DNA from: Eledone cirrhosa
Taxonomy: Eukaryota
Assembly (NCBI GenBank): GCA_964016885.1
Contig: OZ024745.1
Coordinates: forward strand, 89,838,001 to 89,902,000
Length of the DNA stretch: 64,000 bases
Direction of reading: 5' to 3'
Shown: piece by piece, positions 32,690-57,345 of the stretch
How the letters are laid out: every line of letters starts with the position of its first letter
Position numbering within the stretch: the first letter of the stretch is position 1
Notes under the pieces: generated by a model
Told to the model about the DNA's origin: nothing
Databases searched by the model: none
The model's input: the letters and a program-made list of their open reading frames with translations, nothing else
Translations under genes and position numbers: made by a program

Positions 32690-32768
32690 TATATGGTCTT
32701 TAAAGCGATGAAATACCAATGATGGTAGGAAGATCACTGATGACGGACTAACTTTATTCATATGTAAC
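32690..32768 (+). ncRNA. HHR-like CUGAUGAC...GUAAC motif, family b
   Basis: TATA-TGGTCTT...AAGATCA-CTGATGAC...GTAAC; homologous to 35410; second stem weak. Confidence 0.45.
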
Positions 32769-32841
32769 CCATTAGCAACCCCGCAGCATTTTTTCTCATA
32801 TATATATATATATATATATATATATATACATACTTATACGT

Positions 32842-33590
32842 TACACATTTCAGTGGCGAAATGAAATAAATTCGTATCAGCAAGCTTATAGTTATAAGGT
32901 TGGTAGATTTGATTCTGACTTAGGGTTCTTTCTTTTTAATTGCTAACCTGTAGGTGTTGTTTTCCATACAGTAACGGTTAAACCCACATGTAATAATTCT
33001 TTACACACATCTCACTGTGTAACACACTTCTCTCTGTGTAATATATTTGTATTTGAGCTCAGTTGAAAATTCTCTGTTCTTTGAGCTAATATTATTATTA
33101 CTGTGAAGTGCGGAATACTCTAATTCCGATCCGTGTATAATTAACAAGCTCCAAATTGTTGAGCTAATAAATTCGAATGGTTGGGCTGTTCTCTCTAGCA
33201 TTTTCCCCAATTCATGAGAGCCGTTATTTGATGCAAATAACACGTGTTTTCACTCTGCTCTGGGCAGCGTGTATATTTGCGTTCTCTCTTTCCATTAGGC
33301 TAGATGAGTGGCGGGCAATTCCACACTTGCTGACTGAGGAACCTGTGGACTTGTACGCTACACATTTCAGTGGCGAAACGAAATAGATTCGTATCAGCAA
33401 GCTTATAGTTATAAGGTTGGTAATTTAAAACTCTACTTCGGAGATTTGATTCTGACTTAGGGTTCTTTCTATTTAATTGCTAACCTGTAGCTGTTGTTTT
33501 CCATACAGTAACGGTTAAACCTATATGTAATAATTCTTTACACACATCTAACTGTGTAACACACTTCTCTCTGTGTAATATATTTGTATA
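32842..33590 (+). repeat. Partial tandem repeat (517-bp period) carrying an HHR; PLE pLTR or retrozyme-like
   Basis: 32842-33050 is repeated at 33359-33590; flanked by (TA)n. Confidence 0.8.
33326..33401 (+). ncRNA. Type I hammerhead ribozyme, GUA triplet
   Basis: Stem I CTTGCTGA/TCAGCAAG, CTGAGGA, imperfect stem II, GAAA, stem III CGAA/TTCG, TA. Confidence 0.82.
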
Positions 33591-33597
33591 TATATAT

Positions 33598-34228
33598 ATT
33601 AAAAATTTAAAATTAAAAATTAACTTACTTACTAAAGTTTTCACTCCAACTAATTAGTTTCTGTAATGGGATAAAGATAGTTACGCAATGTAACTGTCGA
33701 GAATTCATTACGTCATCAGGGAGTCTATTCTCAGCTAAGTCTCCAGGCAATGCGCGGACACTAGGGACTCATATAAAAATAATAATAATTCGGTGGATGG
33801 AACAGCTAGCGGGGACTGATTCCAAAGCACTGAAAAAGTTCACTGTCTCTGGTCAAATGGCAGATTCTAAAGAATCAATCACGTGACACTGGGGCTAGTC
33901 GGAAGGAGTGGGGTGGTAAAATGACAAAAGCCTACTACCACTACAATAAGTTAGTAGTGGATTTGGCAGGTTTGCTCAACAAATAAATAATTTGGAGATA
34001 AATATAGAGAATTAGTATATTTACCGACATATGCGTACAGATGTACACTAATGCTAGCAAATACATAAGTTATGTCATAGTACCTAGGTGGTTCAATGCA
34101 GGAGGATGCAGAACAATTATATGAAAGACGTAAAATAAGAAAATTTTAAAAATTAAAAATTAACTTACTTATGTATTTGCTAGCATTAGTGTACATCTGT
34201 ACGCATATATCGGTAAATATACTAATTA
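33598..34228 (-). repeat. ~540-bp unit with terminal direct repeat and inverted end; carries GUAAC motif family c (33680-33775)
   Basis: 33601-33632 repeated at 34140-34171; 34010-34070 inverted at 34166-34227. Confidence 0.65.
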
Positions 34229-34849
34229 TATATATATATATATATATATATATATATATATATATATATATATATATATATATATATATCCTTTCTGTAT
34301 GTATACATATAACTTAACTGAATAACAAAATCTACAACCTTTATCTTATGTGTGTAATTTAATGTTTATCACAGCACGATCATTCTACTTCCCTCTATTT
34401 CCTTCAATTGTTAGAGTACCACAGTTTCGTTTTGTCATTATGGTTAAGATCATATTCTAACTGTTATTTACCCATCACGTTTAAGGTAATTGTAGAGCAC
34501 TAGCTTCAGTTTTGACTGCTTTAAAATGTTAGTGTAATATTTGCTGTATTTTCTGGGAACTACGTGTGGTATTTGTTATTCTTAGAATTGCAGGTTTGTA
34601 GAAGAGTAGGCGAGACTGCTGTACTCAGGTTGCAACTATTTGAAGATGTTGCTCACTGGTCTCTTGTCCTAGAATGAATTAAATCGAGGTACATTTTGAA
34701 ACACATTATGGATAAGTTACTTTGTTATTATCTAGCTATATTTAGTTATAATGTACTTTGGAGCCTTTAAATAACGATTTGGTGTATTATAGATTCTTAA
34801 GGTGAGAGTGTGAAAGGAAAGTTTAGAATAAGATCCTCCTTAAATAGGC

Positions 34850-35014
34850 ATATTTCTTTATTTGGCACAAGGGCGTAGAAAAATGGGATATTACAAGACG
34901 TGAAGGCGGGGGTTTTACATAAAATCTTTAACAATAAGGTTTTATGTAAAAACCACGCTGTCACGTCATGTAATGTCCCATTTTTGTACGGCCTTGTGGC
35001 AAATAAAGAAATAT
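34850..35014. mobile_element. Palindromic MITE-like hairpin element
   Basis: ~80-bp imperfect inverted arms with a ~6-nt loop (ATATTTCTTTATTTG...CAAATAAAGAAATAT). Confidence 0.65.
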
Positions 35015-53940: not shown

Positions 53941-55013
53941 TAAAGTTATTTTCGTAAGGCCCAGTCGCTGGCGGTGGTGGCGGTGGGGCTGGAGGTGGCA
54001 GTTGATGTTGTTGTGTTGTGTGCGTGTGTGTGCTTTGTTATTTTGAGGGGGTTTTTTTGTTGTTTTTTTTTAATCTTTTGATGCCGCTGTTGTTGTTGTT
54101 GTAAATGTTCATTTCAGTTCATTCTGAAGCTGTTGTTGCTGTAAACACTAGTGCCGGTGTTGTTGTAGATTTTGGGGTTGAAATCTGGTCGTTTGACTGA
54201 GTAATGTATATACACACATATACATATATATACACATTCAACAGAGAGTAGAGAGTTTGACAACAGGTCGATGACTTTAGTCTAGATAGGGTAATGACAT
54301 GCGATGGTGGGGAGAGAGTGTAGACGTTATTGTGGTGGTGGGGGACAGTGAGATGTATCTATTTCAAATGTCCGTTTTCTTCTCTTTGCAAAATTTGAAT
54401 TTTAGCCATGTTATATTGAGATGTAAGTAAATGTAAAATGTAAAATATAAATAAGGATTGCTCTGCTAAAATATACTAAGATATTTGTGTAACTTCCACA
54501 AACTTCTGTCGTGACATTCCCGAGTCCAGTGACCAACAAATTGTTGTATTTTGATGTTTCAGAATACAAAAATTAATTAAAAACTTAACCCACGAGAAGA
54601 CAGCGTGTGCTGTCCTATCTATAAGCTCCCTCATCATATCATATATACATACATACATACATACATACATACATACATACATACATACATACATACATAC
54701 ATACATACATACATACATGCATACGTGTGTACGTATATACAAACGTACGTACATACATGCATCCATACATACATACTAATATATATACATACATACTTCA
54801 GTACGTACGTACATACATATATGCACACATACATGCATATATATATATATATATATATATACATATATATATATATATACACATATATATATGCTTATAT
54901 ATATATATATATACATATATATATATACATATATATATATGTATATATATATATATACATATATATATATATACATATATATACATATATACACACATAT
55001 ATATGTATATATA

Positions 55014-55712
55014 CATTATCCAGGAAGCTCCAACCGTTAAGGTTGTCTTTTTTCTGGGTATGTCAATATTTATTTATAAAACAAATCTGTATTTTATCTG
55101 ATGAAAGCGCACGTTAATTTGCCTTGGTTGCCCTTGAAATATATATAAGAAAATAAATATGATTTTATAAATATAGTTTCCAGTTATTAATATATTGTGT
55201 ATTTACTCCACTAATGTGTTGAGTGCTTTATATCAGTTATAAAAATGTTTAAGCTTGTTGAATCCCAACAAATTAAATATAGCCTCTGCATATGTGTATA
55301 TATATATATATATACATATATATATATATATATACATATATATATATATGCATATATATATATATACATATATATATATATACTCGTATATATATACATA
55401 TATATACATATATACACACATATATATGTATATATACATTATCCAGGAAGCTCCAACCGTTAAGGTTGTCTTTTTTCCGGGTATGTCAATATTTATTTAT
55501 AAAACAAATCTGTATTTTATCTGATGAAAGCGCACGTTAATTTGCCTTGGTTGCCCTTGAAATATATATAAGAAAATAAATATTGTTTTATAAATATAGT
55601 TTCCATTTATTATTATATTGTGTATTTACTCCACTAAGCTGTTGAGTGCTTTATATCAGTTATAAAAAGGTTTAAGCTTGTTGAATCCCAACAAATTAAA
55701 TATAACCTCTGC
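55014..55712 (+). mobile_element. Tandem 423-nt HHR units (HHRs at 55090-55155 and 55513-55578); retrozyme-like or pLTR tandem of the Nematis-like family
   Basis: Two near-identical units; TATTTTAT-CTGATGA...GAAA-TATATA-TA-AGAAAATA; homologous to 43920-44030 and 46541-46687. Confidence 0.82.
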
Positions 55713-55831
55713 ATATGTGTATATATATATTCAATACACGGTTACCACGTTTGACTAGCGGCGCACGAGGTGATAAATTTCATCTTTCTGTGTGAACGTT
55801 GGTACATTGTGTTTGTTGCATTTAATCAGAT

Positions 55832-55912
55832 TCTCTCGCTGATGATGCCTAAGGATTATCTGTTACAAACACACTCAGGGCGAAACAGATTAGGGATAAT
55901 CTGTGCGAGAGA
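55832..55912 (+). ncRNA. Type I hammerhead fold with GUG at the cleavage triplet
   Basis: TCTCTCG/CGAGAGA, CTGATGA, GCC/GGC, GAAA, CAGATTA/TAATCTG, TG. Confidence 0.8.
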
Positions 55913-56607
55913 TAAAATGGTTATTGAGGCGGTTTGTATAATAATATATTTTTTATTTTATCATTATGTCTGTTTCTTGGTTAAATATTTCAAACAAATG
56001 TGGTTTTTCAACCCTTGTAATATTAGACACACGGTTTACTGTGTTTCTTACTGCATATATATTATATATATATATATATTACTATTTGTCTGACCCGAAT
56101 TTTCTTGGTCGTTTTTTCGGCTGTGCGAATGATTTTAAGCATTATCTCAATGTGTTGGTATTTAAACGTTAGTTATAGCTCTGGTTTATCCAACTATTGA
56201 GCACTTTACCACACTTTTCGAAGATTGTGTTTCCTTATTTCGTGGGCCGAGATTCCGATTCTCGATAATTTATTTGTATACATATATATAAATATATATA
56301 TATATATATATATATGTGTGTGTATATATATATATATATGTGTGTGTAACTAAAGAAAGAAGAGTAACATGGATTACCTACAACGATAACTTATTATCCC
56401 ATATATATATATATATGTATATATATATATATATATGTATATATATATATATATATATATATATATCTATATATATATATATATATATATATATATATAT
56501 ATATATATATATATATATATATATATATATATATATATATATATATATATATACACATATATATATACATATATATGTGTATATATAAATATATATATAT
56601 ATATATA

Positions 56608-57345
56608 GCGCGAAGAAATACCCATGATTCCTAGTAGACAACTGATGACGAATACTCCTCTCTTTCTTCCGTAACTTTTATTTTTCATTATACTTATTTG
56701 AAACCACACAGATCGCCATTTTATTCATATAAGCTTCCTTCTTCGCTGTGACCCGTCTTTTATCTCTCCCCCCCCCCCTTGCTGCTATCCTCTCGCTCTC
56801 TCTCTCTCCCTTTTCTCTCCTTCTCCCTCTTACTTTCGCTCACCCCCTCTGCTAGTCACCTCTCGGCTAGCCTCCCTCTATAACTATCTCTTTCTCGCTT
56901 CCTCTTACGTTCACTTACACCCTCTCTGCTAGTCATCCTCTCTCCGCGCTAGCTCACTTTCAACCTAGTACACCACTGTACGCAGCCTCTTTTCTCGCTA
57001 ACACTGCTACGGCTAAGACGTGTCTTTTATCTCTCTCGTCAAAATTCGCCCGTTCTTATGTTCGAAATGAGTTGTTGACTTGATATTTTCCTTATTTTCC
57101 TCCCTTTACGTTGCTTCACCCTTCGTGTCTGTTTACATGTTTTTCTCCCCCTCCCCACCCTTTCTTTTATCCCAATAACTTATTTTAGCTATTGTTTCGC
57201 CCTAGGCTGAGATATGTTGTCTCTGACGCGAAGAAATACCTATGATTCCTAGTAGACAACTGATGACGGATACTCCTCTCTTTCGCCCGTAACTTTTATT
57301 TTTCATTATACTTATATGCAACCACACAGGTCGCCATTTTATTTA
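56608..57345 (+). repeat. Partial tandem repeat (618-bp period) with GUAAC motifs at 56636-56675 (5'-truncated) and 57213-57293
   Basis: 56608-56727 repeated at 57228-57345; CT-rich interior; (TA)n flanks. Confidence 0.78.

Follow-up and report, generated by a model that had tools for sequence, protein, structure and literature searches.

We analysed a window of 64,000 nucleotides (nt) from Eledone cirrhosa (contig OZ024745.1, positions 89,838,001 to 89,902,000; G000:C5:89838001-89902000 in our searches of the 3.0 Gb genome), which is rich in microsatellites and in fragments of LINEs (long interspersed nuclear elements) and of Penelope-type elements. An original prediction had placed within it five copies of one covarying, type III hammerhead-like RNA motif that carries GUAAC in place of GAAA. 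The sites are indeed real: CTGATGAC followed by GTAAC is present at 32737, 35457, 56642 and 57260 on the plus strand and at 33719 on the minus strand. They are, however, two different things, and GUAAC is part of neither core. The plus-strand sites, from families a and b, belong to a non-canonical hammerhead-like RNA within Penelope-type repeats, as had been suggested, and the minus-strand site, family c, is an ordinary type I retrozyme unrelated to them; a covariance model of a/b recovers copy b and all three family a copies (a1, a2, a3) but not c. From the sequence comparisons described below we propose, with a probability of roughly 0.8, that intact a/b copies self-cleave as permuted hammerheads, after the U-H at the boundary of stems III and I.

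In families a and b the blocks of the hammerhead core run 5' to 3' as cleavage site, GAAA and CUGANGA, with GAAA 27 nt before CUGAUGA and its partner strand further upstream, and with spacings between blocks that are constant to within 1-2 nt. The complete order of elements is P4 strand, P5 hairpin, stem II 10.x strand, P0, NGA, stem III strand, H17 (the cut), stem I strand, UUAA, stem II 11.x strand, GAAA, stem III strand, NNN-GA-N, P0, stem I strand, CUGANGA, N and P4 strand. The features of the window that carry this arrangement, in hammerhead numbering and with their support, are as follows.

32647..32748, plus strand: family b copy, full domain from the P4 5' strand to the P4 3' strand; the sole intact copy in the window
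32647..32650, plus strand: P4 5' strand, partner 32745-32748 just 3' of CUGAUGA-N; 93.6% paired, with GUCC/GGAC and AUCC/GGAU
32651..32672, plus strand: P5 hairpin; 5 of 7 pairs compensatory
32674..32678, plus strand: stem II 10.x strand, displaced upstream, partner 32704-32708; covariation
32679-32684 with 32724-32729, plus strand: P0 helix; covariation
32685-32687 with 32718-32723, plus strand: predicted kink-turn; covariation and conserved letters
32688-32692 with 32713-32717, plus strand: stem III; covariation
32692..32694, plus strand: U16.1, H17 (A, 32693) and nucleotide 1.1; predicted cut between 32693 and 32694
32694-32699 with 32731-32736, plus strand: stem I, a pseudoknot; covariation
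32700-32703, plus strand: UUAA linker between stems I and II
32710..32713, plus strand: GAAA (G12-A15.1)
32737..32744, plus strand: CUGAUGA (C3-A9) and one variable base
32450..32797, plus strand: 5'-truncated family b repeat unit ending at (TA)n; 5' end approximate
35366..35468, plus strand: family a copy 1; G at position 17 (35413), G>A in stem III; GAAA at 35430
56608..56731, plus strand: family a copy 2; begins about 10 nt past the predicted cut; first unit of a 618 nt tandem pair
57169..57271, plus strand: family a copy 3; G at position 17 (57216); GAAA at 57233

Because of the G at position 17, joined in copy 1 by the G>A change in stem III, family a copies 1 and 3 are probably inactive. 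Family a also has a second UUCGC 3' of the core, at 57283-57287, which might compete for stem II as a possible switch; the other families are without it.

GTAAC was thought to replace GAAA, yet GAAA is found in a, b and c alike, and this was the outcome named beforehand as incompatible with the motif. In a/b it stands upstream of CUGAUGA at 32710, 35430, 56615 and 57233, inside a 'long loop' that had been left unexplained, and it is this position that makes the RNA a non-circular permutation rather than a type III fold with GUAA for GAAA. A search with CTGATGACN{8,30}GTAAC does return 7,615 matches genome-wide against 1,084 for the reversed control, which, with the five window copies, is what speaks for one type III-like motif common to the three families. 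Part of these matches come from an abundant hammerhead family (L001, L005, L022 and L030) of the form CUGAUGA-C-CCUG...CAGG-C-GAAAC with a long stem III region. Against it stand the GAAA of every family and the frequent lack of GTAAC: of 223 copies collected by the descriptor, a set that includes some false positives, only 86 have GTAAC after the core and 137 do not. The TAT/GTA pairing supposed to close a three-way junction holds in only 61% of cells, the GG/CC stem of family a in only 50%, and the GTAATG/CATTGC stem of family c is not above shuffles (364 of 500 scored as high). In copy b CUGAUGA is followed by a C that no other copy shares, contigs aligned there reading A at about 99% of depth. 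We rejected a GUAAC-centred single motif on these alignments and give it next to no chance of being correct. What did hold is the covarying stem before CUGAUGA in a/b (TTGTCT/AGACAA, TGGTCT/AGATCA), which is 95.7% paired with 5 of 6 pairs compensatory, and the arrangement of units in tandem or as fold-backs adjoining (TA)n.

The six-helix structure of a/b (P4, P5, II, P0, III and I) is almost certainly real. Across 47 hand-picked copies, 93.2% of 1,550 cells are paired and 22 of 33 pairs have changes on both sides, a level that none of 500 shuffles reached; slid partners gave at most 48.8%. Stems I, II and III thus flank the core with covariation, stem II by way of its upstream strand, and P0, a helix linking the far ends of stems I and II, is 92.9% paired with 5 of 6 pairs compensatory. 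Since relatedness inflates pair counts, the variety of helix sequences is the stronger evidence. Among 20 variant representatives (three mis-registered family e rows were dropped and redone separately), pairing was 94/100 for stem I, 74/80 for stem II with the upstream strand and 95/100 for stem III. For example, stem I occurs as UGGUC/GAUCA, UUGUC/GACAA, UGAUU/AAUCA, UGGCC/GGUCA and CUGUA/UACAG, stem III as GGUAU/AUACC, GGCAU/AUGCC and GAUGU/ACAUC, and stem II as UCGC/GCGA, UUGC/GCAA, ACGC/GCGU and GCGC/GCGC. In the distant family e all three stems are altered together (CUGUA/UACAG, GGCGC/GCGCC, GAUGU/ACAUC), with full pairing in 6 of 12 distinct copies, and the covariance model, although built without the distant families q, r and e, recovers them. 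An unguided mutual-information scan placed 10 of the proposed pairs within the top 30 of 5,787, beside many lineage-driven pairs. A stem II partner directly 3' of CUGANGA was rejected: at best 3 of 4 pairs formed, in 16 of 223 copies, and all four in none. The linker between stems I and II is almost invariant as (U)UAA in all families including e, which suggests a tertiary contact.

Conservation of the core is close to complete. C3, U4, G5, A6, G8 and A9 together with G12, A13 and A14 are each kept in 46-47 of the 47 copies, with N7 variable (U, C or A); the A15.1-U16.1 pair is U-A in 47/47. Position H17 is A in 27, C in 18 and G in 2, both G rows being the window's own family a copies. When about 16,000 contigs per run (three runs from one sample, contigs of unknown kind) were aligned on copy b, no core-letter variant reached 10%, and the common variants fell in the stems and at the base after A9; this result does not depend on the core patterns by which the loci had been collected.

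Between stem III and P0 lies a 3 nt variable bulge followed by GA opposite GA, that is, a G.A and an A.G pair between two helices. The letters at the kink-turn positions are G1b in 47/47, A2b in 47/47, A1n in 46/47, and G or U at 2n, with U in some families. This loop matches the kink-turn sequence rule as given in the accessible part of PMC5061560, including position 2n, which is G or U as in Kt-23. We therefore predict from sequence that the stem III/P0 junction is of the kink-turn type.

The general a/b core pattern has 19,493 exact matches in the genome against 0 in the control, in some 20 sequence variants, and a pattern spanning all three blocks, cleavage block included, has 13,594 against 181. 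Stem III variant patterns add 254 (control 11) and 4,127 (control 0). The structure descriptor matches the window once, at copy b, and 100 shuffled windows once in total. In viral and metagenome scans, a weak search, none of 99 tested matches (19 viral, and 80 listed of at least 118 from metagenomes) passed the descriptor, and the best covariance-model score among the matches listed was 15.5 bits. One array (L222-L230) holds at least nine family g units of 720-810 nt with near-identical ribozymes, suggesting recent amplification.

Family c has the order CUGANGA, stem II, GAAA, stem III, UH and stem I, which is that of a type I hammerhead, and its features are these.

33643..33724, minus strand: family c, type I hammerhead with extended stem II; fold and core order
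33719-33713, minus strand: CUGAUGA
33661-33658, minus strand: GAAA
33648, minus strand: U after which the cut is predicted
33684-33680, minus strand: GTAAC, the 3' arm of a hairpin internal to stem II

From GTAAC the sequence continues as CATTAC-A-GAAAC-TAATTA-GTT-GGAGT, which places GAAA 20 nt downstream of GTAAC; GAAA is kept in 16 of 19 distinct cores. Stem I is ACUCC/GGAGU, stem II has 6 bp with its internal hairpin, and stem III is a palindrome of two pairs, like the short palindromic stem III of the minimal hammerheads of Penelope-like elements (PMC4209133). In 12 copies 95.2% of cells are paired; stem II reaches 98.6%, with 2 pairs compensatory. The units are tandem and about 550-570 nt long. 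Family c fits the known retrozymes lacking long terminal repeats (non-LTR retrozymes) except for its longer unit. Rfam returned no hammerhead among the best 150 of 193 window matches, nor among 12 matches in 32600-35600, where even this ordinary family was missed.

Of the known systems, the type-SGC hammerhead (HRIMA-1 and variants) is the closest to a/b. According to the part of Eckert et al. 2023 available to us (PMC10085705), hammerheads in the order site, GAAA, CUGANGA were shown to cleave, in the first demonstration of non-circular permutation of a natural RNA; they came from metatranscriptomes and metagenome contigs, with none described there from the genome of a known organism except one doubtful bacterial GCS case. 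Going by that same text, a/b have in common with type-SGC the block order, stems I and II as pseudoknots, and a helix joining the far ends of these stems (the 'I' helix there, P0 here), and the linker between stems I and II is about 3 nt there and 4 nt in a/b. Whereas the type-SGC stem II strand lies 1-2 nt after CUGAnGA, that of a/b stands upstream of the cleavage block, P4 and P5 being inserted, and the type-SGC RNAs are known from metatranscriptomes while a/b is present as about 20,000 genomic copies. What is new in a/b is this upstream stem II partner, with two extra helices filling the break after A9, and also the predicted kink-turn-type loop, with both strands contributing, that joins stem III to the I-II helix; neither 'k-turn' nor 'kink' occurs in the SGC supplement as available to us.

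Other systems resemble a/b in part. The pseudoknot hammerhead of Zhan et al. 2024 (PMC11300833, main text as available) completes the helix under G12-A9 with a strand from elsewhere and is a partial precedent, but it keeps G10.1-C11.1 right after A9 as a short stem, and its strand comes from a stem-loop tied to helix I by an AUA4 linker; that text makes no mention of a kink-turn. The minimal Penelope hammerheads of Cervera and de la Pena 2014 (PMC4209133) share with a/b an extra base after A9 and a Penelope context, but are of type I and need dimers, whereas a/b has a full stem III and a different strand order. No report of the a/b fold was found in the open literature, subscription papers being outside its scope, where 'type-SGC' was found in one paper only. 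If it cuts itself, as is likely, a/b would as far as we found be the first report of a ribozyme rearranged in this way in the DNA of a eukaryote itself.

The tandem units that carry the motif are 445-753 nt long. Six units checked are pyrimidine-rich, have one plus-strand CUGANGA each (6/6), and contain longest open reading frames (ORFs) of 30-177 amino acids (aa). In this they resemble non-LTR retrozymes as described in the parts seen of Cervera and de la Pena 2020 (PMC7229834) and Li et al. 2026 (10.64898/2026.07.22.740005), which are non-coding repeats in tandem, each unit having one hammerhead, scattered through a Penelope-rich animal genome; those sources give type I hammerheads and RNAs of about 170-400 nt, unlike the permuted ribozyme and longer units of a/b. 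The type I hammerhead of such retrozymes is present in c and not in a/b. The frequent tandem arrangement also bears on an alternative in which the scrambled order is not the working topology and the active form arises by strand swapping between two units or two molecules. Dimeric action is known for the hammerheads of Penelope-like elements (PMC4209133), and covariation does not separate cis from trans pairing. Stem III, however, is a stable, non-palindromic helix of 5 bp, continuous with P0 as a local hairpin, the fixed block spacing suits an intramolecular fold, and stem II would stay detached from A9 even after swapping; we consider strand swapping very unlikely.

A (TA) run follows within 400 nt 3' in 186 of 239 copies and begins 60-149 nt past the predicted cut in 178, and these junctions fit both non-LTR retrozymes and internal priming by a Penelope enzyme. 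Of the first-unit 5' ends of tandem arrays, 16 lie at +1 to +43 and 6 at -1 to -43 (p=0.026, hand-curated, 52 rows). In this count a 3 nt offset was corrected by hand, two rows blurred by TA microhomology were moved to +5, one internal-deletion row and five artefact rows were dropped, and the remaining rows lie outside both bins. The excess after the predicted cut is an indirect and only suggestive sign of cutting.

Several observations weigh against permuted, self-cleaving hammerheads, and we gather them here. Related copies may exceed shuffles without any structure, and in alignment A2 no helix is weaker than stem II (83.8% paired, with 7 compensatory cells only). The equal numbers of G-U and A-C cells (40 and 42) mean that the strand is not confirmed by them. 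Core conservation is partly built into the alignments, because the loci were found by core patterns. Stems I and II have small predicted duplex energies (-2.3 to -8.1 kcal/mol), and neither pseudoknot, a structure that the program is unable to model, is present in the predicted minimum-energy folds. In family e the 5' GA of the kink-turn is missing and a plain internal loop stands in its place, so the kink-turn is not essential in every lineage. The window's two full-length family a copies both carry damage at the cut site. Rather than a sharp peak at +1, the 5'-end signal shows a broad step, and single anchors from 50 loci are not significant (9 versus 3 events, p=0.07). Among 156 loci none showed an autonomous element with the motif, the four adjacent cases inspected had no contiguous ORF, and the window's own Penelope-like family uses a minimal type I hammerhead. 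The published SGC descriptor has no match in 240 loci and its relaxed form two, and the split between A9 and stem II violates the assumption of an unsplittable block in PMC10085705 as far as that source was available. Having the SGC order without an intact block C, in which the stem II strand directly follows CUGAnGA, a/b is therefore a new variant and not a member of the published SGC set.

The R10.1-Y11.1 pair of hammerheads, usually G10.1-C11.1 and placed directly after A9, is lacking in most families, where 45 of the 47 copies have A or U at 11.1. In 68% of weighted rows 11.1 can pair with the base that follows A9, and a G-C at 10.1-11.1, made by the upstream strand, occurs in distant families; 10.1 may be either the base after A9 or the first base of that strand. 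Active hammerheads with weak 10.1-11.1 pairs exist, as reported in the accessible part of PMC3088659. The weak pair and the split core are what one might expect if the fold were real but not, or no longer, catalytic, a hammerhead-derived platform for the Penelope reverse transcriptase or for an L7Ae-family protein. On this alternative the clustering of 3' junctions 60-140 nt past the predicted cut would place the region near the start of copying, and internal initiation on Penelope-like element RNA is reported in the part of PMC11167929 available. A mere binding site, however, is not expected to keep over some 20 variants the exact catalytic signature seen here, with C3-A9, G12-A15.1 and U16.1 invariant, N7 variable and H17 almost never G, nor did the six units checked contain a second plus-strand CUGANGA. 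We regard a non-catalytic platform as improbable, if slightly less so than strand swapping.

The rest of the window contains further repeats. A 36 bp satellite occupies 2-19675, its longest array having 473 copies, and is broken by short pieces matching the Penelope repeat end of 57478-57996. The latter is a near-perfect fold-back (256 nt arms) of a Penelope terminal repeat in which each strand has a minimal hammerhead. A Penelope-type element at 59200-63950 has a reverse transcriptase frame of 612 aa at 61237-63072, with more than 70 close genome copies, some with open frames of more than 1,000 aa; the element's terminal repeat carries a minimal type I hammerhead at 63654. Other canonical or minimal hammerhead-like cores, from different repeat families, lie at 33334, 42669 (minus strand), 49654 and 55839. 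A repeat family with CUGAUGA, a long stem II insert and GAAAUAUAUA is present at 44019 (minus strand), 55098 and 55521, as well as at L016:2666 and L148, and is apparently a second type I hammerhead with an extended stem II. Broken LINE-type elements on the minus strand, with an RVT_1 match, cover 22700-27450 and 50590-53340. By eye, 36546-36600 has a tRNA-like 5' sequence, possibly the head of a short interspersed nuclear element; ARAGORN called no tRNA in the window.

As self-cleaving permuted hammerheads, the a/b RNAs might work as follows. P0 and stem III would form one long hairpin bent at the kink-turn. Folded back by the kink, P0 would lie along the II/III stack, and its far end would hold stems I and II to each other in the manner of the SGC 'I' helix. 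Stems I and II would be pseudoknots to a 20 nt loop, with P4 and P5 extruded beside A9. The usual G12/G8 chemistry would then cut multimeric transcripts into monomers. On the model put forward for non-LTR retrozymes, these monomers would close into circles, which a Penelope-type reverse transcriptase acting in trans would copy into (TA)n. Much more tentatively, a/b could be a four-strand hammerhead that works as a monomer, falls outside the six permutations held to be possible, is made for joining its own ends again and is gated by protein through the kink-turn. The ends of the cut monomer would be clamped by P4, stem II, P0 and stem III (about 20 bp, versus about 6 bp in type I), favouring self-circularisation, and a host L7Ae-family protein (15.5K/Snu13) would switch the ribozyme on. 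If this were true, a/b would be a natural hammerhead under protein gating that has been amplified in an animal genome to about 20,000 copies.

If the motif cleaves, non-circular permutation would be known also from a eukaryotic genome, in very many copies, and CUGANGA and the stem II strand would no longer be inseparable. The kink-turn would also suggest an answer to the geometric puzzle posed by the SGC authors in the text available, namely how the far end of stem III is linked to the I-II helix. Since standard hammerhead descriptors and Rfam miss the a/b copies, present counts of ribozymes and retrozymes in animals may be underestimates.

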